From positions 42,446 through 106,445 of the forward strand of contig CBDVDR010000012.1 in the NCBI GenBank assembly GCA_965372795.1: 64,000 nucleotides of DNA, written 5' to 3'. Shown here piece after piece: positions 2,863 through 48,126 of the stretch. A model generated the notes under the pieces. The model made no database searches and was not told where the DNA came from. It saw only the letters and a program-made list of their open reading frames with translations. Numbering within the stretch: the stretch's first letter is position 1; the number at the start of each line of letters is the position of its first letter. The position numbers were made by a program, and so were the translations under genes. The stretch is from an uncultured bacterium. Its GTDB lineage: Bacteria > Zixibacteria > MSB-5A5 > GN15 > FEB-12.

Positions 2863-2886
2863 TATAAACTCCTTTGATGTTGCTTT

Positions 2887-2954
2887 TTAAATTCAGTTCG
2901 ATATTAAATTCAGCAACTTTTTAAATTCAGCGACCTTTTAAATTCAGTTCCATT
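2887..2954. repeat. Four tandem copies of a 17-bp unit (ttaaattcagNNNNNtt) in the 5' region of the MBL hydrolase gene
   Basis: The ttaaattcag core starts at 2887, 2904, 2921 and 2938, an exact 17-bp period. The array lies 25-92 bp upstream of the minus-strand start at 2862. Confidence 0.7.
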
Positions 2955-3046
2955 GAATTATCATATATGTAATAAAATATTACAGCCTCAGCCTGATTGT
3001 GTCAATATTTTAAATTTAGGGATATTTTGAATCAACCCTGCCTGAT

Positions 3047-5140: not shown

Positions 5141-5600
5141 ATTAAAAATCACCCAAAGTGTACGCCAGAGAAAAACACACAAAGTATGCGAAATACACGA
5201 AGTGTGCAAACGAACCCATTTTCATTGTACAAGGATTCGTCATAATGATTTACAGCAATAAAATGAATATTTTCTGGAGTTTACCAAATGACAGAACTGG
5301 CAGGATCGCAGGGATCACTGCCCTACTTGTTGTCAAAAATGAGGAAACGAACCCAAATAGTTGTAATATTAAATCACAGATGAAGTTACAAGGAAATAAA
5401 AGAAAGAGTTACAAAGATAAACATGATAAATATAAACCACACAAAGTGTGAGATTGCTTCGTCGCTTCTCTCCTCGCAAAGACAAAATTGGCAGGATCAC
5501 AGGGATCACTGCCCTACTTGTTGTCTAAAAGTGAAGAAACGAACCCATTTTCATTGTACAAGGATTCGTCATAATGAGTTACAGCGAAAAAGAAATAATT
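5141..5600. repeat. 480-bp repetitive non-coding region between convergent gene ends. It contains a direct-repeat copy of aaaatcacccaaag, duplicated modules A (5211-5259 / 5537-5585) and B (5299-5355 / 5490-5546), and the right inverted repeat IR-R (5439-5485).
   Basis: Module A is gaaacgaacccattttcattgtacaaggattcgtcataatgaKttacagc. Module B is ggcaggatcRcagggatcactgccctacttgttgtcNaaaa…gaaacgaaccca, whose ends form a ggcag…ctgcc hairpin. Only short overlapping ORFs are present. Confidence 0.7.
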
Positions 5601-5610
5601 TAGCGTGAAA

Positions 5611-6696
5611 TTATGCGATCAAGCCGCCGGCAAGGAGATAATCACCTTCATAAAAGACAACCGATTGACCCGGGGTAATCGCTCGTTGGTGATCCTTAAA
5701 AGTCACCTGCACCCGATCATCCGGCAAACAGACCAACTCCGCCGGCCCGGGGGTGTGAAGATAACGAATTTTCACTTCAGCCGAAAATGCCGAAGCGGTC
5801 GGTTGCATCCCGACCCAGTTAATCTGTTCCGCAATCAATTCAAATCTAAACAGAGAATCGTTTTCGCTGACAACAACCCGATTATTGGCCACATCCAGCT
5901 CTTTAACATAAAGCGGGGTCGGATGAGTTAAGCCCAGACCTTTGCGTTGCCCGATAGTATACAGGGCGGTTCCAAGATGTTGACCGAGGACCTCGCCGTT
6001 TTCGTTAACAATTTCGCCCGGTTCGTAATTTCGGTCCTGTTTATGATGATGCTCGATTAAAAAGCGGCGGTAATTATCATCGGGAATAAAACATATTTCG
6101 CGCGACTCGGCTTTGTCGGCCGTGCGAAGTTTATACTTGCGGGCAATCTCGCGAACTTCGCTTTTGAGCAATCCGCCCAAAGGCATCAGAGTTTTCGAGA
6201 GTGCTTCCTGCGAGACACCCCAGAGAACATACGACTGGTCGCGGGAACCATCGATCCCCTTTTTGATTGTGTATCTTTGATTGGGAAGTTTTTCAATTTT
6301 GGCATAATGACCGGTTGCAATATAATCGCATCCAAGTTCGAGAGCTTTTTTTAAAAAGGTATTCCATTTGACATCGGAGTTACATCGCACACACGGGTTC
6401 GGCGTCCGCCCCTGGTCGTATTCGCTGATAAAATCTTTGATAACAGTATCGCGAAAATGTTCGGACATATTTAAAACATAAAATGGGGCATCAATAGAAT
6501 CACAAACAATCCGGCAATCGGTGATCGAATCAATCGTGCAGCACCGGCCGTCTTTGTAAATATCTGCGCCGACATCAACATAGTCCCACAGTTTCATATG
6601 AGCGCCGACAACTTCGTACCCCTGCTCTTTCAACAGAAAGGCGGCCACAGATGAATCGACACCGCCGGACATAGCTACTAATACTTTTTTACTCAT
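5611..6696 (-). CDS. mnmA: tRNA-specific 2-thiouridylase MnmA
   Basis: 361 aa. N-terminal PP-loop VAMSGGVDSSV, catalytic cysteines, and full-length similarity to MnmA/TrmU. Confidence 0.93.
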   Translation of the reverse strand: MSKKVLVAMSGGVDSSVAAFLLKEQGYEVVGAHMKLWDYVDVGADIYKDGRCCTIDSITDCRIVCDSIDAPFYVLNMSEHFRDTVIKDFISEYDQGRTPNPCVRCNSDVKWNTFLKKALELGCDYIATGHYAKIEKLPNQRYTIKKGIDGSRDQSYVLWGVSQEALSKTLMPLGGLLKSEVREIARKYKLRTADKAESREICFIPDDNYRRFLIEHHHKQDRNYEPGEIVNENGEVLGQHLGTALYTIGQRKGLGLTHPTPLYVKELDVANNRVVVSENDSLFRFELIAEQINWVGMQPTASAFSAEVKIRYLHTPGPAELVCLPDDRVQVTFKDHQRAITPGQSVVFYEGDYLLAGGLIA

Positions 6697-16625: not shown

Positions 16626-16866
16626 AAATACCTTTCAGTCTGCTTAAATATAATACCCACAGACGAATTTAAAGTTCCAAAAATAGCCGTGAAAGATAAA
16701 AATTTTATCTGGCTGTATTACAGCCACTTACGAGGGCTATTTGGGCCGGTTTTTGGGTCTTATGCGCCAATTTCTGGAATTAATACAAATTGGAGGTAGA
16801 TTTCTTCCCAAAAAGTGGGGAAAAGTTGAAGGAGGGACGGATCCGCCGAAGAGGATTGCCATAGAA

Positions 16867-16904
16867 CAAAGACTGGATCCCCGCGTTCGCGAGGATGACA
16901 ATAG
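16867..16904. repeat. Copy 1 of a 36-38-nt palindromic repeat (caaagactggatccccgcgttcgcgaggatgacaatag). A degenerate partial copy lies just upstream at 16835-16864.
   Basis: Identical 38-mer at 17350-17387 and a 33/36 match at 17441-17473. The core atccccgcg-ttc-gcgaggat forms an imperfect hairpin. Confidence 0.8.
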
Positions 16905-17062
16905 GGTCGCAGGTTTTAAACAAATGAATGGTTTATTTAATTGCGAAATTCTTAGAAACGGCTAATTACAAATTTTTAATTTACAAAATGATTTAATACT
17001 ATTATTTAAATAACAATTCTCAGATAATGTCATTCCTGTGAAAACAGGAATCCAGTGTTAAT

Positions 17063-17347
17063 TTACAGACTATTATATAAGTCTTCCCAATTCGGATTAT
17101 CTTTTTCAATCAATTCTAATTTCCAAATTCTTTTCCAATTCTTCAATTGTTTCTCTCTGATGATAGCTTGAGTTATATCTTCATGAATTTCATAATAAAC
17201 TAATTTATGTACATTATATTTTGCTGTGAACCCCTTAACCAAATTATTTTTATGCTCGTAAATTCTTTTTATCAGATCATTTGTTACCCCAACATAAAGA
17301 GTACCATTTTTTCTACTGGCTAATATGTAGACAAAATACTGTTTCAT
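17063..17347 (-). CDS. Small GIY-YIG nuclease superfamily protein (UPF0213/YhbQ-like)
   Basis: 94 aa. YFVYILASRKNGTLYVGVTNDLIKRIYEHK is a canonical GIY-YIG motif. Repeat copy 2 begins 3 nt upstream of its start codon. Confidence 0.8.
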   Translation of the reverse strand: MKQYFVYILASRKNGTLYVGVTNDLIKRIYEHKNNLVKGFTAKYNVHKLVYYEIHEDITQAIIREKQLKNWKRIWKLELIEKDNPNWEDLYNSL

Positions 17348-17349
17348 AA

Positions 17350-17387
17350 CAAAGACTGGATCCCCGCGTTCGCGAGGATGACAATAG
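17350..17387. repeat. Copy 2 of the 36-38-nt palindromic repeat
   Basis: Exact match to copy 1, 483 bp away. Confidence 0.8.
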
Positions 17388-17440
17388 AGAGTCTTCCTTT
17401 TAAGATTTTATTAACTAAACTCCTCGTTATTATATATAAG

Positions 17441-17473
17441 CAAGACTGGATCCCCGCGTTCGCGAGGATGACA
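17441..17473. repeat. Copy 3 of the palindromic repeat. Its 3' end is divergent.
   Basis: caagactggatccccgcgttcgcgaggatgaca, 90 bp from copy 2, ending 19 bp before the stop of the downstream permease gene. Confidence 0.75.
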
Positions 17474-17491
17474 CCAGCATAGCTGGTCTTA

Positions 17492-36516: not shown

Positions 36517-39500
36517 TTATTTAAGTAATAGCATCTTCTTGGTTTTACTAAAGTTGTCTGTTTTCAAACGATAGAGATAGACACCGGAAGCAACCTGTGA
36601 GCCGGTACTGTTGGTACCATCCCACTGGATCGAGACGACACCGGCATCAGCAGACCCATCAAATTTTCTTACCAAGGCACCATTGATATTGTAAACTGTA
36701 ATTGACCAGTCAGATGGTTTTGGAAGAGCAAAATCAATATTAGTAATCGGATTAAACGGGTTAGGGTAGTTCTGATGCAATTCAAAAGCCGTCGGCAATG
36801 AGGTTCCTTTGAATACGGCATCAAATGGACGACCCTGATAATCAACGATTTCGACTTCTACAAATTCTATTGAGCCTGATCCATTGAACGGAATTTCAAA
36901 AATGTCATTTTTACCGGCATCAATCCGGTTATTACCAATATCAAATAAAATCACCAGTAACTGATCATCTACCACATTATGCAACAACTGCATCCCTTCG
37001 GCACCTTCGGCAACCCGTGGCTGTTGAATATCTACATCGCCAATCAGGTCAAACTTAAAGAGAGCACCGCCAATACTTGAAGCAGCATCAGTCGTAACTG
37101 TTTTAACACCTTTTTCAACAACATCTGTTATAGCCAGATTCTCTTCATTCGGAATAACTTTAGGAATCGGAAGAGCATCACCGACGATGATTCTAATAAG
37201 TAGAACCAGATCAGCAATTGTCAGAGTCAATCCATCAGCGTTTACATCTGTAGCAGCGACCTGCCCAACCGGATCAACTACAAAGACAGCCAGACCTCGA
37301 ATAAAGTAGTTTGAAAATACAACAGCATCAGCAATTTCGTATGGAACTCTATTTAAGTTTACATCTCCCCTTGAGCTATACTCTTCAAGAGGTAAAATAC
37401 AGATACCGCCATTATAATATTCTATACACCGTTCAGGGTTAGGTAGAGTTGAATTATTCAAACAACCATTTGAACCACCCATACCAAAAGGACGACTCAA
37501 TTCAGGGAAGTTTATGTCATCTTCCTCATCCCAAATCAAAATTCCTTCGGCATTATAAATCTTATTATTAAAATATGTCACATCACCATTAAGGGATGTA
37601 AAGGTATTATTATTACAAGCATACGTGAAGAATTTGATTGGTAGGAATTGGTTGCTTAGATTTTGATCATTGGCTATTCTAAATGAAATATCAATCAATA
37701 CATCTTGAGGTTTCAGAGATACATTTGGCGGGATAATTTCTCCGTCACCAAGACCAGCTATTCCTAAAAACTGAACTAAGCCAGACGGGCAAGCATTTCC
37801 ACAACTTTCTTCGCCAAGTCGGAAAGAGAAATATTCCCATCCAGCGATATCACTATTTGTAGTATCCGCTGACTGGAAAGACATGACTGTTTTATCATAT
37901 TCAATCATTATATTAAAACTGGTTATATAGTCGTTGGATTCAATCTTTAAAGATACATTATGAGCAACACCGACCCCATCGCACTCTCCGCCATCAATGG
38001 TCAAGCGGACACAAACATCACAGTCGCCTTTATCAACAACATTGACAAAGAAAGATTTGGATATTGTTTTACAACCATCGGTTGATTCAAAACAGAACTC
38101 ATAGTTACCAACTGTGTCCGGGCGGAAACAGACCTGACCAGTATCAGCATCTGTTAACTCCAGAGTCCCATCTCCGCAAGTCATTGTAATAAATGATTGT
38201 GATCTTGTATCAGTACTGAAAATGCCGTCAAAACATTTAAGAGTGGTATCCTGAGGACACCAGATAATGGTTGTATCGGCAGGCAGAGAAAGAATCGGGG
38301 CTTGATCATCAATAACATTCACGACCACATAACAGGTATCAGCACCGCATTGATTATCAGCGATAATTTGAATTTCATAGAATCCGGCGGTGTCGACCGG
38401 GAAACAAATTTCATTGCCGTTATATACACCAAGGGGGCTAATTGAAATATCTAAATCGGTTCCGGTGATAGTAATCGGTACGCAAATGGTTCCCAAAGTA
38501 TCAATACAAACTAATGTATCAATCGGCGGGGCACATACAACCAGAGGTTTCACGGGAATATGAATATCAAGATCAAAGCTGCAGGTGTCCGTCTGACATT
38601 GTGTCAGAGCAACAACCTCAACCGAACGTAAGCCTTCTTCTATAATATAAAGTGCTAAAGTCTGACTGGCAGCGTCGTAAACACCATTATCAACCGTTAC
38701 AATAGCATAATCAGGTTCTACAACAAAATTTTCAATATAGACAGTATCCGGTCCGCAGATGGTATCATAAACAATAGTTTGCGGGCAATTTATTGCGGCA
38801 AACCCACCAAGTTTATAATCTATTATAAGAGTATCAGAATATATTTCATTACAGGCATCAGTGACTGTTAGAATAATCGTATGCAGACCATAATCGTCCG
38901 GGGTAAAGAAATATTGGGTGCCTACTATAGAATCAACATTGGGCGAGGCAACTACCGAAGTAATATTATTATCATTGTCATAAAGATTAAATGAGAATGA
39001 TTTCTGAATCAAACCACATTCAGAGATAGAAATATCATCTCCCATAGATATGAATGGCGATGAATTAAAATCAGTCATAATATTGAATGAACATTGTTCA
39101 ATTCCACAAACACTATAAGCAGTCATGGAAATTTCCATGCTTCCTTGTGCCAGAACGGGTACGTAAACTTTGCCATCCATCAGATAAGCAGGTTCGGTAA
39201 CTTTGACCGAATCAACCAGCATTGAAGTTTGATAGTCAAAAGCTAAAGTATCAGGACCGCATAAGAACAACGGACCAACATCTCCGGGACAAACAATTCT
39301 ATCATCAATTGTTACAACAACAGTTGCATTAACGGTGACAGAATTACATTCGGCATTAGCTGTTATTTCAATATTATAAGTACCGGCGGTATCAGCATCA
39401 AAGCAGACTTCCCCGTTACTATATGTACCATAGTTTATAATCAACTCATCGTAAATACCGGTAAGATTTAGCGGAAGACAGATAATATCCGGCTGGCATA

Positions 39501-41667
39501 AATTCACTACCGAATCAGAAACTTGGGCAGTAATAGAATTACCTTCAGTAACAGTTACAAAAACCGTGTCACGGTCAACTTCCATACAAGCATCATAGAC
39601 CGAAACAATTATCTCATGAATACCATAACTATCAGGTGTAAAGCAGATCACGTCATTATTTATAAGACCATGAGTTGAAACTATCGAGTCGATATTGTTA
39701 TCCGGGTCACTATAAGAAATCGGATCCAGACATATTTCTGCAAGATCACATTGGCGAACTTCAAAATCAGCACCGGCTGTAATTATCGGGGAGCTGTTAA
39801 ATTCAGTACTGACATCAAAAGAACAAACGTCCTCTCCACAGACAGAAAAGGCTGTCATTGTAATAGTTTGAACACCGGGAGATAAAACAGGCACCATTAC
39901 CTGATTACCTACAAGATATGCCGGAGAAGAAACTTTGACCGAATCAACTAACGGCGAGATTTGATAATCAAAGACTAAGGTGTCAGCCTCGCATAATAAT
40001 AGTAAATCAGTGCTTGGCGGACAGGTAATCCGATCATCCATATGGACATCAACGGTGGCAGTGCTTACCGAAGTATTACATTCTGCTACAGCTGTAATTT
40101 CGATTGTGTATAGACCGGCAGTATCAGCCGGGAAACAAATAAATCCGTTGTCGTAGGTTCCAAAATTTGTATTTATGGTCTGATAGATTCCTGTAATAGA
40201 AACCGGCAGACATATATTATCAGGACCACAAAGATGAGCAAGAGAATCAGAAACATTTACAGTAACATAATCACCTTGTTCAACAGTTAACTCAATCAAC
40301 ACCTGATCGGTTTCGCCACACTCATCTTCGGCAACGACAATGATTGAATAATCACCAGCGGTATCAGGTGTAAAACAGTATTGACCGGAGACATAATTGT
40401 AATAACCAACGGTTCCGGTAACAGAAACAAGATTATTATCAATGTCGCTAACATCAACCGGCAAACAGATTTCTTCAAACACACACTGGCGGAAATAAGT
40501 TGTCGAAGGAGTATAGCTAAGAACCGGCGCCGTATTAGCAAAGATTGTTACATCAACAAAATCAGTGCTGATTTCGCCACACTCATCTATTACAGAAACC
40601 TGTACGGTATAAGTACCGAGAGTGTCAACGGTGAAACATATATAGTTAAATTTTGGATTATAAACAAATCCGTTGGCTAAATCCGTTTGGACATCAACAA
40701 TATTGTTATCATAATCAGAGATGCCAACCGGAACACAAACCTGTCCACCAATACAGGCGGCTAATGAATAATTTGCCGGGAGCGCAACCAGTGGAGGCTG
40801 GTTACAAAGGATTGTAACCGTAAAATTTTTCTCGTAAGTACCACAGGGTGTTGCGACAGTGATAGAGATCGGATTGGTAATACCACAGGATGAAGAGAAT
40901 GCAATCGCCTTAAGATCTGGATCATACCAGGTATTGATACCGGTAATAGTTGTATCAGAACCGGGAGGAACATTTTCAAGAGTAATCGGGAAATAATAGG
41001 TTCCGGTTTCACAAACAAAAACAGTAGTATCGTTCGGAACCTCAAAATCGATCTGGAAATCGGTTTGGATATAAATATTAGCCGTATCAGCTGAAACTTC
41101 ACCACATTCATCAGTGGCAGTAATTATAACTTCATAATAACCGGTGTCATAAGAAACAAACTGTAAAGTACTGGTCGTTAAATTCAGATAACCAAGATTG
41201 TTGGTAATACCTACAATGTTAGAATCGGGATCTGAAATAGTTACCGGTACATAGATCCAACCCGGGGCACATTGATAGTAGAGACTATCATTCATGCCGC
41301 TTACTACCGGCGGACGATTATCAGAAAGCTGATCAGTCATGTATGCCTGAACTAAGTTAGTGCCATCGGAAACCGAGACATGGAATAAATAAGTTCCGGC
41401 AGAACCGGGCGTGTAAGTAATTAATCCGGTAGAAGAATTGATACTTCCCGGACCAGATATTAATTCATATGTTAATGGATCATTTTCAGGATCAGTTGCA
41501 ACAACTTGAATTGTTCTATCCTGAACATTCCCGCAATAGCCGCCGAAGAAACCCTGGTCCTGAAATACAGGAGAGGCTCCTATTACATTACCGGCAGTAA
41601 ACCCGGAAATTATTAATAATAGAAAAAGTATTCTAGATTTTGAATAGTTTCTAAAAATCCCTATCAA
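36517..41667 (-). CDS. Giant secreted cell-surface protein. It has a signal peptide, multiple Cys-containing Ig-like/HYR-like repeats, a dockerin-like double Ca-binding module, and a C-terminal type IX secretion sorting domain.
   Basis: 1716 aa. Recurrent …CFTPDTAG.Y…V…DECGE… units. Dockerin-like segments DVNLNRVPYEIADAVVFSNYFI and DVNADGLTLTIADLVLLIRIIVG. The terminal ~80 aa (…NGALVRKF…SGVYLYRLKTDNFSKTKKMLLLK) match the T9SS CTD pattern. Confidence 0.8.
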   Translation of the reverse strand: MIGIFRNYSKSRILFLLLIISGFTAGNVIGASPVFQDQGFFGGYCGNVQDRTIQVVATDPENDPLTYELISGPGSINSSTGLITYTPGSAGTYLFHVSVSDGTNLVQAYMTDQLSDNRPPVVSGMNDSLYYQCAPGWIYVPVTISDPDSNIVGITNNLGYLNLTTSTLQFVSYDTGYYEVIITATDECGEVSADTANIYIQTDFQIDFEVPNDTTVFVCETGTYYFPITLENVPPGSDTTITGINTWYDPDLKAIAFSSSCGITNPISITVATPCGTYEKNFTVTILCNQPPLVALPANYSLAACIGGQVCVPVGISDYDNNIVDVQTDLANGFVYNPKFNYICFTVDTLGTYTVQVSVIDECGEISTDFVDVTIFANTAPVLSYTPSTTYFRQCVFEEICLPVDVSDIDNNLVSVTGTVGYYNYVSGQYCFTPDTAGDYSIIVVAEDECGETDQVLIELTVEQGDYVTVNVSDSLAHLCGPDNICLPVSITGIYQTINTNFGTYDNGFICFPADTAGLYTIEITAVAECNTSVSTATVDVHMDDRITCPPSTDLLLLCEADTLVFDYQISPLVDSVKVSSPAYLVGNQVMVPVLSPGVQTITMTAFSVCGEDVCSFDVSTEFNSSPIITAGADFEVRQCDLAEICLDPISYSDPDNNIDSIVSTHGLINNDVICFTPDSYGIHEIIVSVYDACMEVDRDTVFVTVTEGNSITAQVSDSVVNLCQPDIICLPLNLTGIYDELIINYGTYSNGEVCFDADTAGTYNIEITANAECNSVTVNATVVVTIDDRIVCPGDVGPLFLCGPDTLAFDYQTSMLVDSVKVTEPAYLMDGKVYVPVLAQGSMEISMTAYSVCGIEQCSFNIMTDFNSSPFISMGDDISISECGLIQKSFSFNLYDNDNNITSVVASPNVDSIVGTQYFFTPDDYGLHTIILTVTDACNEIYSDTLIIDYKLGGFAAINCPQTIVYDTICGPDTVYIENFVVEPDYAIVTVDNGVYDAASQTLALYIIEEGLRSVEVVALTQCQTDTCSFDLDIHIPVKPLVVCAPPIDTLVCIDTLGTICVPITITGTDLDISISPLGVYNGNEICFPVDTAGFYEIQIIADNQCGADTCYVVVNVIDDQAPILSLPADTTIIWCPQDTTLKCFDGIFSTDTRSQSFITMTCGDGTLELTDADTGQVCFRPDTVGNYEFCFESTDGCKTISKSFFVNVVDKGDCDVCVRLTIDGGECDGVGVAHNVSLKIESNDYITSFNIMIEYDKTVMSFQSADTTNSDIAGWEYFSFRLGEESCGNACPSGLVQFLGIAGLGDGEIIPPNVSLKPQDVLIDISFRIANDQNLSNQFLPIKFFTYACNNNTFTSLNGDVTYFNNKIYNAEGILIWDEEDDINFPELSRPFGMGGSNGCLNNSTLPNPERCIEYYNGGICILPLEEYSSRGDVNLNRVPYEIADAVVFSNYFIRGLAVFVVDPVGQVAATDVNADGLTLTIADLVLLIRIIVGDALPIPKVIPNEENLAITDVVEKGVKTVTTDAASSIGGALFKFDLIGDVDIQQPRVAEGAEGMQLLHNVVDDQLLVILFDIGNNRIDAGKNDIFEIPFNGSGSIEFVEVEIVDYQGRPFDAVFKGTSLPTAFELHQNYPNPFNPITNIDFALPKPSDWSITVYNINGALVRKFDGSADAGVVSIQWDGTNSTGSQVASGVYLYRLKTDNFSKTKKMLLLK
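38814..40278. repeat. Internal tandem duplication (2 x ~732 nt, 244 aa each) inside the giant T9SS protein gene
   Basis: Protein residues ~464-707 (GDYVTVNVSDSLAHLCGPDNICLPV…TVFVTVTE) and ~708-951 (GNSITAQVSDSVVNLCQPDIICLPL…) align colinearly with high identity. The unit junction at nt 39546 was confirmed (DRDTVFVTVTEG). Confidence 0.7.
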
Positions 41668-47262: not shown

Positions 47263-48126
47263 CTATTGCAAGTTAACCCTATATGGAATACACCAGGTCC
47301 GGATATGCTGACCTGCGGGCAAAGTTCCGTCAAATGATTGAATCGTAATAATATTCCAAAGCCGGTTATTATTTGAAGGAGTTGAGACAGTATCAATTGA
47401 GTTTGTACCATTAATATATTTCATAGGGTATGTTAGAAATCCTTTATCTGATTCTGCAGAAATAATATGATATTCAGCAGTAGGAGCAGTTCTTTCGGCT
47501 TTAATTTCAAGTTTCATTCCCTTTTCAATTAAAGGAAAATCCTCGAGTTTAATATATGGGAGATTAAAGCCTACGGTCCGGTTGCGATATGAGCGAGAAT
47601 CCCCATCAAATTGGACAGAGTTATCTGTAGATTTACCTTCGATAGTAACCGGAGCCGGGATCAAACCGAGGCTGTTGAAACCATACATTTTCCATCCCAG
47701 AAAAGCTCGGCTGTCATCGCCAAGTTTTAAAAAATAAGCATACCGAATTATTGAACGAGTTGATTCGCCGGAAGTAGTATCATTACCGGTGTACCTGAAT
47801 GTTTTGACAGTATAAAAATCTTCAACAATGGCTATTGCTTCTCTTACAAATCCGATATTCTCAATCTCAGAGACATCTCCAATAGTAATATTTACATTTC
47901 TTCTGTTAGACTGGAACACGTCCTTGTAAAGGGCATTATCAAACGGCACACTATACAAGGTTTCATCAAATAATGAATCAATCCGAAACAGCTCGACACC
48001 TTCTTCGGTATTTTCAAGATAACTTAATAACTGATCTTCGTCTGAAATGACAGGAATTTCGATTTCTTCACATCCAATAATGAATAGTAAAGCAATTGCT
48101 GAGAAAATAAGAATCTTCTTTGTCAT
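47263..48126 (-). CDS. Hypothetical lipoprotein
   Basis: 287 aa. Signal peptide with lipobox (FIIGCEE). No recognisable domain. Confidence 0.45.
   Translation of the reverse strand: MTKKILIFSAIALLFIIGCEEIEIPVISDEDQLLSYLENTEEGVELFRIDSLFDETLYSVPFDNALYKDVFQSNRRNVNITIGDVSEIENIGFVREAIAIVEDFYTVKTFRYTGNDTTSGESTRSIIRYAYFLKLGDDSRAFLGWKMYGFNSLGLIPAPVTIEGKSTDNSVQFDGDSRSYRNRTVGFNLPYIKLEDFPLIEKGMKLEIKAERTAPTAEYHIISAESDKGFLTYPMKYINGTNSIDTVSTPSNNNRLWNIITIQSFDGTLPAGQHIRTWCIPYRVNLQ

Follow-up and report, generated by a model that had tools for sequence, protein, structure and literature searches.

The DNA analyzed here is a 64-kb stretch (64,000 nt, hereafter the window) of a Zixibacteria-like metagenome-assembled genome in which the region between a DUF401 gene and an ECF sigma factor gene holds a very small GIY-YIG nuclease gene, here called ssn, surrounded by short palindromic repeats. 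This arrangement raises the questions of (i) which system, if any, the repeats and the gene jointly represent; (ii) whether the same combination of gene and repeats is present at other loci; and (iii) whether such a unit can move. An earlier interpretation made from the letters alone (the sequence-only reading) had placed three possibilities side by side: a REP/MITE-type element family in which the GIY-YIG gene is embedded, a homing-endonuclease-like unit, or a set of cassette-recombination sites.

Repeats and hairpins around the gene

The repeat is represented by a 38-mer, CAAAGACTGGATCCCCGCGTTCGCGAGGATGACAATAG, that is found exactly at 16867–16904 and at 17350–17387, with no such pair expected from shuffled sequences. 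The exact identity spans 40 nt (16865–16904 and 17348–17387), extending 2 nt further left than the 38-mer. A third copy, at 17440–17477, matches the 38-mer at 34 of its 38 positions and includes an unbroken 33-nt core (17442–17474), while a degenerate copy retains 24 identical positions in an alignment with three gaps. Folded as DNA, the intact copies form hairpins of 8 pairs with energies between −5.4 and −8.0 kcal/mol; in the degenerate copy the hairpin has been lost (z 0.14).

In these respects the sequence-only reading had described the region accurately, reporting an identical repeat at 16867 and 17350, a near-identical copy at 17441, a degenerate copy abutting the first of them, and an imperfect hairpin. 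The distances it gave are likewise reproduced: its first copy (d in Table 1) ends 158 nt past the ssn stop codon, the 38-mer of its second copy (b) lies 2 nt from the ATG, and its third (a) follows 90 nt further on. Its count of three copies plus a degenerate one stands for those four but omits an inverted copy, c.

Copy c, TGTCATTCCTGTGAAAACAGGAATCCAG, lies on the opposite strand, 7 nt past the ssn stop codon, and has a folding energy of −6.6 kcal/mol (z −4.0). Its flanking tags are those of the other copies; three of its stem pairs are changed from C-G to T-A in a compensatory manner, and the position of the C.A mismatch in the main-copy stem is occupied by a C-G pair. The two ends of ssn carry two different stem types. 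All four intact copies have the form TGTCAT-stem-loop-stem-ATCCAG, each with its GTC tag and with the C that follows the palindrome. A hairpin with the core of copy c is also seen downstream of the gene at one of the homologous loci (L070).

Read in the orientation of the gene, two forward hairpins come first, then ssn, an inverted hairpin, a further forward hairpin, and finally the decayed one. The outermost upstream copy, a, starts 18 nt beyond the end of the DUF401 ORF and has a folding energy of −8.0 kcal/mol (z −2.6); the core of copy b ends 8 nt ahead of the ssn ATG, so that copies b and c bracket the gene in the fashion of terminal inverted repeats, and about 130 nt of AT-rich DNA separate inverted hairpin c from forward hairpin d.

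When all 64 kb of the window were scanned for hairpins of this architecture, no further convincing copy was revealed; one weak, unrelated match at 47378 is without the flanking tags. The four intact copies and the decayed one all lie inside 650 nt, and all at ssn, so that nothing in these 64 kb points to a genome-wide role of the kind seen in Neisseria. The sequence-only reading had named as evidence against itself a repeat that is ubiquitous at loci unrelated to the gene; in the 64 kb covered by the window, no repeat is found away from the gene. At the gathering threshold, Rfam families are absent from the entire window. On the repeats themselves, the only Rfam matches are sub-threshold ones to FtrB, which we discarded.

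Table 1. Positions of ssn and its putative SRM copies, numbered from the first letter of the window
Feature	Positions	Strand	Description
ssn	17063..17347	-	94-aa single-domain GIY-YIG nuclease, predicted Ssn family; ORF and Pfam
SRM copy a	17446..17473	-	Distal upstream of ssn, forward on gene strand; TGTCATCCTCGCGAACGCGGGGATCCAG
SRM copy b	17356..17383	-	Proximal upstream, forward; SRM motif match, hairpin folds
SRM copy c	17028..17055	+	Inverted, divergent stem; inverted-repeat pairs and hairpin scan
SRM copy d	16873..16900	-	Downstream, forward; SRM motif match, 40-nt exact repeat of copy b
Decayed SRM copy e	16835..16864	-	Abuts copy d; gapped alignment
Whole Ssn/SRM block	16835..17478	-	~645 nt; approximately what the window has in excess of syntenic relatives without the unit

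Assignment to the Ssn/SRM system

A gene-repeat pair of similar design has been characterized in N. meningitidis, where SsnA, a GIY-YIG protein of 94 aa that has a single domain and belongs to CDD family cd10448, binds the NTS repeat CGTCATTCCCGCGMAVGCGGGAATCYRG (the oriented form of dRS3) as single-stranded DNA only and cuts a few nucleotides upstream of it (Chenal et al., Nat Commun 2025, PMC11893778). SsnA does not act on double-stranded DNA, RNA, or the reverse strand, RNA not even being bound, and its cutting is abolished by the substitutions Y6A, Y17A, and E64A (PMC11893778). Cleavage depends most on the three nucleotides 5' of the palindrome and binding most on the C just 3' of it, and altering the stem can abolish activity even when the hairpin is preserved (PMC11893778). 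With ssDNA-specific cleavage confirmed for three further homologues, four members of the family have been characterized in all, and the repeat has been generalized to "Ssn-related motifs" (SRM), which lie near the gene in 71% of homologues and on both sides of it in 42% (PMC11893778). In N. meningitidis, the Ssn system results in less integration of transforming DNA that bears the repeat (PMC11893778).

The protein encoded in the window matches the Pfam GIY-YIG family over residues 3–74 (E 8e-17), with no other domain found, and no second ssn-like gene is present in the 64-kb window. As a reference standing in for N. meningitidis SsnA, we used a 94-aa ORF of N. gonorrhoeae (L090:2998-3282), taken from two 2.17-Mb gonococcal records that are included in a plasmid collection but are really chromosomes. 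We consider this ORF the SsnA orthologue on the basis of its length, the presence of Y6, Y17, and E64, and the NTS clusters around it, nine canonical NTS copies lying within about 1.5 kb. By BLASTP, the window protein is 58% identical to this orthologue over 89 ungapped residues, with an E-value of 2e-41, against the published homology threshold for the SsnA family of E < 1e-10 (PMC11893778). A tblastn search of a 7.3-Gb database also recovered the gonococcal match, at E 3e-30. Residues Y7, Y18, and E65 of the window protein align to Y6, Y17, and E64 of the orthologue and are invariant in an alignment of 20 family sequences.

Homologues of this protein are numerous: a large protein collection contains more than 8000 of them at 65–79% identity, distributed across phyla. 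The best 120 of these are 68–79% identical to the window protein and about 95 aa long, and the names of their sources include Phycisphaerae, Omnitrophota, Patescibacteria, Zixibacteria, KSB1, Nitrospirota, and Bipolaricaulota. No sequence relatives were found in the PDB at E ≤ 0.01.

A GIY-YIG domain together with a patchy, horizontally transferred distribution would also suit a free-standing homing endonuclease of the I-TevI type whose target is the repeat, as the sequence-only reading had considered, and the only NCBIfam match of the protein is indeed to a group I intron endonuclease model, TIGR01453. That match, however, is weak and sub-threshold, reaching 24.1 bits where the cutoff is 56.05, and it covers residues 5–44 only. 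What is encoded at the locus is a bare nuclease domain; a DNA-binding domain, an intron, and an intein are all absent, and there are no homologues in 50,697 phage records. The characterized members of the family do not cut double-stranded DNA (PMC11893778). We judge a homing endonuclease to be very unlikely here.

The repeats lead to the same family as the protein. We searched the window with the published SRM motif, HGTCWYN(0-2)YYVSBRHN(0-5)WNVSBRGN(0-2)RNCYNB (PMC11893778), and obtained three matches where 0.07 are expected from 100 dinucleotide shuffles. All three are on the gene strand and correspond to copies a and b, upstream of ssn, and to copy d, downstream of it; copy c fails to match at a single stem position. 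Taking protein and repeats together, we conclude that the locus is very probably (probability about 0.92, as judged from sequence comparison) an Ssn/SRM module of the NTS-ssnA-NTS type, in which the protein would be an Ssn-family ssDNA endonuclease and the repeats its SRMs. The REP/MITE-type reading with an embedded GIY-YIG gene was therefore right in essence, the element being the one described as Ssn and SRM (PMC11893778). The system as such is already published, and the locus adds one further member to it.

Repeats of this kind had been catalogued before their nuclease was known as such: dRS3 and the Rickettsia repeats RPE-4 and RPE-6 were grouped in 2013 as "CGTC-tagged REPs", with families CGTC-1 to CGTC-4 (Di Nocera et al., BMC Genomics, PMC3733652). 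They have CCA-type tails, mostly form dimers, and occur in several phyla, and the survey concluded that they are without a dedicated transposase, having found no RAYT or IS200 gene flanked by CGTC-type units (PMC3733652). The window copies carry TGTC where these families have CGTC (3/4), along with the tail CCAG and a GC-rich hairpin. The T as first base of the tag fits an SRM, because the later SRM definition allows H at this position.

Short extragenic palindromes that form inverted pairs, and in other genomes gene-less doublets, resemble REPINs, and it could accordingly be proposed that a RAYT-type (HUH Y1) transposase mobilizes the repeats as a REP/REPIN family and that the GIY-YIG gene is a mere passenger or neighbor. 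Against this, the genes called within ±10 kb include no Y1 transposase, the tag is TGTC or CGTC rather than GTAG, CGTC-type units flank no RAYT or IS200 gene (PMC3733652), and across phyla it is the GIY-YIG gene that has the repeats at its sides. We regard a RAYT-driven family as highly improbable.

Homologous loci, genomic origin, and possible mobility

We examined 80 homologous loci from many phyla, obtained by scanning species-representative genomes, for hairpins of the form TGGAY-stem-loop-stem-RTGA. In 54 of the 80 loci the gene has such a hairpin no more than 150 nt away, and in 33 it has one on each side; hairpins number 4.38 per kb in this zone as compared with 0.088 per kb beyond 1 kb. 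Their orientation follows a strict rule: of the hairpins in the final 25 nt ahead of the start codon, 21 of 22 have GTCAT...CCAG on the gene strand, as copy b does, and of those in the initial 25 nt after the stop codon, 31 of 32 have CTGG...ATGAC, as copy c does. In a search that used only the tags and did not require pairing, 66% of 273 matches nevertheless pair with at most one mismatch, whereas only 1.2% do so when their interiors are shuffled, and the paired matches comprise 49 distinct stem sequences; the structure is therefore conserved while the stem varies. Several genomes additionally contain gene-less inverted hairpin doublets, 17–40 nt apart, in the same relative orientation as around the gene. 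The sequence-only reading had proposed comparing relatives, a gene that occurs without the repeats being an argument against the association; gene and repeats are found together in many phyla, and neither of the two refuting situations it had named therefore holds.

These results bear on two further interpretations of the hairpins. The first is that they are attC-type sites, integron-like or of another cassette-recombination system, flanking a gene cassette, a possibility also raised by the sequence-only reading; imperfect hairpins that would act as single-stranded DNA and that flank a small, promoter-proximal gene are in keeping with it. The called genes in the ±10 kb around the unit include no integrase or any other recombinase, however, the repeat has SRM tags and matches the SRM motif, and instead of variable cassettes it is the same gene family that is flanked in many phyla (54 of 80 loci). 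Cassette recombination is accordingly an explanation to which we attach next to no weight.

The second interpretation is that the hairpins serve the DUF401, ssn, and ECF sigma genes as ordinary terminators, attenuators, or mRNA-stabilizing stem-loops and are repeated by chance or through local duplication. The three genes are co-directional and one terminator-like site overlaps copy a, but a single site compares with 0.6 expected, its pairing differs from that of the conserved stem, and U-runs are missing from the copies. Neither the non-palindromic tags nor the strict orientation and cross-phylum conservation would be explained by such a function, and SsnA binds no RNA (PMC11893778). We thus think it most improbable that the hairpins exist as transcript structures.

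With respect to how the module came to its present site, two syntenic Zixibacteria relatives (L093 and L094), reached through the large protein collection, are informative. They have in common with the window the gene order DsbD, DUF2064, creatininase, aminotransferase, DUF401, ECF sigma, anti-sigma, protease, and TamB, and their DUF401 proteins are 64% identical to that of the window. The intergenic region between DUF401 and ECF sigma, however, is 866 nt long in the window and 194 nt in both relatives, where it contains neither ssn nor an SRM. The interval of about 645 nt accounts for this difference. About 209 nt of repeat-free DNA separate the unit from the sigma start codon, confirming the position upstream of the ECF sigma operon that had been noted before; this length is similar to the 194 nt that the entire intergenic region measures in the relatives.

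The ssn protein and its DUF401 neighbor also differ in their relationships. The best matches of DUF401 are from Zixibacteria, at no more than 70% identity, which makes this candidate phylum the probable source of the window, and in a metagenome scan with DUF401 the relatives found were at most 31% identical over most of the protein. The Ssn protein, by comparison, is 74% identical to sequences from Phycisphaerae, Omnitrophota, and Patescibacteria, and its closest relative (79%) is located in an unrelated neighborhood, beside LepA and a DpnI-like gene. The Ssn protein thus has closer counterparts in other phyla (74%) than DUF401 has in its nearest known homologue (70%). The unit looks to have been horizontally acquired, as a compact element, by a Zixibacteria-like genome. 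Loss by deletion in the lineage of the two relatives, in place of gain here, is a formal alternative, as the intergenic DNA of these relatives is too diverged to be aligned with that of the window, which also leaves the insertion junctions undefined.

Several other loci are consistent with a unit that is transferable as a whole. One genome (L034) has two copies 2.3 kb apart that are 98% identical over 355 nt, a stretch running from TTGTCAT to ATGAC (GGGAATGAC) and so bounded by the outer edges of both SRMs. Units from Acetothermia (L012) and from a Dehalococcoidia single-cell genome (L032) are 91% identical over 415 nt only; their right end coincides with the SRM edge, past which they diverge. 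Likewise, a unit from Nitrospirae (L016) and one labeled Proteobacteria (L051) share 94% identity over 479 nt only. A comparison of filled and empty sites on Rhizobium plasmids gave no such boundaries: the similarity to related plasmids ended before the gene, and adjacent canonical SRMs are absent there. Errors in MAG binning could affect the taxon labels of the cross-phylum pairs, but not the fact that their flanks differ.

By analogy with the four characterized homologues, the Ssn protein of the window would recognize an SRM only when it is single-stranded and folded into a hairpin. Recognition would involve the stem sequence together with the GTC tag on its 5' side and the C that directly follows it on the 3' side, and the nick would fall a few nucleotides 5' of TGTCAT, on whichever strand carries GTCAT...ATCCAG. 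Cuts are predicted on the minus strand near 17476–17480 (copy a), 17386–17390 (copy b), and 16903–16907 (copy d), and on the plus strand near 17022–17026, 5' of copy c, so that the cuts at b and c would lie on opposite strands and immediately beyond the two ends of the hairpin-gene-hairpin unit. Both the cleavage chemistry and the cut positions are those that we infer from these homologues.

The resemblance of NTS-ssnA-NTS to an insertion sequence was remarked on in the 2025 study, in which mobility was not demonstrated (PMC11893778), and no later paper on the mobility of Ssn units was found in the literature searched. We tentatively consider, at clearly less than even odds, that hairpin-ssn-hairpin is an autonomous mobile element whose GIY-YIG ssDNA nickase cuts outside two inverted SRMs, that doublets and arrays are its non-autonomous progeny, and that it moves between phyla. 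Its copying would probably rely on host recombination or repair, and gene-less SRM doublets already in place may serve as targets. GIY-YIG enzymes are hydrolytic nucleases, whereas Y1 transposases use a covalent tyrosine-DNA intermediate, and GIY-YIG enzymes are not known to form such an intermediate; because of this difference, host functions would be needed for any copying. The duplicated unit, the cross-phylum units, the presence or absence at syntenic sites, and the doublets are compatible with a compact transferable unit and do not amount to proof of transposition.

Significance and relation to known systems

The assignment means that a gene annotated as "GIY-YIG nuclease family protein" and its surrounding repeats can be named as a putative Ssn nuclease with SRM sites, and that spurious ORFs reading through the repeats can be discounted. 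It also provides a Zixibacteria-like example of what may be the minimal state of the system, with the gene's own flanking hairpins only and with two stem types, a state more in keeping with a unit that arrived recently than with a domesticated genome-wide system. Ssn/SRM pairs are candidate sequence-specific cutters of single-stranded DNA, for which the stem CCTCGCG/CGCGGGG would add a new specificity of some practical value. If the mobile reading is true, the units would represent a new mechanistic type of mobile element.

Compared with the published Ssn/SRM system (PMC11893778), the locus is alike in encoding a 94-aa protein with a GIY-YIG domain only, in which the residues mutated in SsnA are kept, in the GTC 5' tag and CCAG 3' tail of the repeats, in having repeats upstream as well as downstream of the gene, and in the wide distribution of the protein over bacterial phyla. 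It differs in (i) the tag, TGTC instead of CGTC; (ii) the stem, CCTCGCG/CGCGGGG with one mismatch; (iii) the host, a Zixibacteria-like MAG; (iv) the two stem types at the gene ends; and (v) copy number, with 4–5 copies in 64 kb as against hundreds per genome in pathogenic Neisseria. The CGTC-tagged REPs (PMC3733652) have the short GC-rich palindrome, the unpaired 5' tag, and the CCA-type tail in common with the window copies and are often inverted dimers, but while they constitute high-copy families, the copies in the window are few, have T rather than C as first base of the tag, and flank the gene of their putative cognate nuclease.

The likeness to REP/REPIN-RAYT systems and to IS200/IS605 elements lies in the placement of a small nuclease gene between subterminal hairpins that are recognized as single-stranded DNA, and also in gene-less doublets that are dispersed in some genomes, the relation between autonomous and non-autonomous forms looking similar. 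However, the HUH Y1 fold and chemistry of these systems are unrelated to those of Ssn, which has neither an HUH motif nor a covalent tyrosine-DNA intermediate, and to our knowledge transposition of an Ssn unit has never been demonstrated. With GIY-YIG homing endonucleases such as I-TevI, finally, the locus shares the catalytic superfamily and a selfish-looking, horizontally mobile distribution, whereas those enzymes have a separate DNA-binding domain, cut double-stranded DNA, and reside in introns or phages, none of which applies at the locus, where the gene of a single-domain protein is bracketed by hairpins beside which that protein would cut.

Gene order and reading frames at the Ssn unit

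Where the window has the ECF sigma operon downstream of DUF401, the two loci with the closest DUF401 genes (L091, 70%; L092, 68%) have a Tricorn_N/peptidase S9 gene as the next neighbour, so that gene order breaks at the junction that holds the Ssn unit in the window. Copy d of the Ssn-related motif (SRM), the hairpin repeat that flanks the nuclease gene ssn, is read through by a 74-aa ORF whose translation includes 'LDPRVREDDN'. We consider that this ORF is almost certainly not a gene, and that it belongs to the same class of artefact as those seen at L090, the gonococcal locus with an SsnA orthologue, where copies of the NTS (the Neisseria form of the SRM) are traversed by ORFs containing 'LDSRLRGNDG', 'SFPRRRESR' and 'VIPAQAGIQ'. 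Two N. gonorrhoeae records in PLSDB, NZ_CP119140.1 and NZ_CP119142.1, are labelled as plasmids; these 2.17-Mb, almost unannotated sequences (12 features are listed for NZ_CP119140.1) are evidently chromosomes.

In the Rfam search, both SRMs upstream of ssn were matched below threshold by FtrB (Francisella sRNA B), with scores of 18-21 bits vs a gathering score of 66, which suggests that this family may include an SRM-like hairpin.

Coordinates of ORFs, repeats and Ssn-associated features in the window and at other loci
Feature	Location	Strand	Remarks
74-aa ORF	window 16741-16965	+	listed in the source assembly as a gene of 67 aa
FtrB matches, sub-threshold	window 17331-17395 and 17432-17490	-	Rfam search
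17-nt unit (CTTTTTAAATTCAG...)	window 2883-2964		about 4 tandem copies
Direct-repeat pairs A and B	window 5200-5591		order A-B...B-A; non-coding
mnmA-like gene	window 5611-6696	-	
Recurring segments of 52-86 nt	window 38358-40140		732 and 1731 nt apart; about 73% identity
Ssn homologue	L096 2501-2785		60% identity; Planktothrix agardhii plasmid NZ_LR882964.1
Tandem array of SRM 3' half-sites (CAGGAATGACA)	L097 3740-3930		upstream of the Ssn homologue gene
Doublets of two different SRM types	L055 5349-5744		3 repeats, 151-nt period; downstream of ssn, Nitrospirales chromosome

Other repeats in the window

The mnmA-like gene is preceded by about 480 nt of non-coding DNA. Within it, repeat A (63 nt, 90%) lies at 5200 and 5529, and repeat B (53 nt, 91%), which includes the hairpin ggcaggatc[g/a]cagggatcactgcc, at 5287 and 5478; Rfam returned no match for the A/B repeat region. 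The window also contains a short tandem repeat and, further along, a set of recurring segments that are probably diverged tandem paralogous genes.

Ssn homologues and SRM variation at other loci

On the Planktothrix plasmid, the Ssn homologue has an MmeI-type restriction-modification gene on one side and drmA, the DISARM helicase gene, on the other, a setting that looks like a defence island, and the repeats around it are of a different type (GTCATTCTGAG...). At L097, which encodes the closest homologue of the window's Ssn protein (79% identity), the SRM 5' halves that would match the half-site array are absent, and a variant SRM (TTGTCACCCCTGCGAAAGCAGGGGTCTAGG) lies 11 nt 5' of the ATG. At L055, the doublet repeats, together with several further SRM copies within +/-5 kb, give that genome an expanded repeat state, unlike the window.

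The loop of the SRM downstream of ssn at the Acetothermia locus L012 holds a second, unrelated GC-rich hairpin (TAAGCCTGCCCCTGCACAGGCAGGG), which is missing from the 91%-identical unit of L032, a Dehalococcoidia single-cell genome. The SRM loop has been reported to tolerate insertions (PMC11893778), and the nested hairpin fits this published property.
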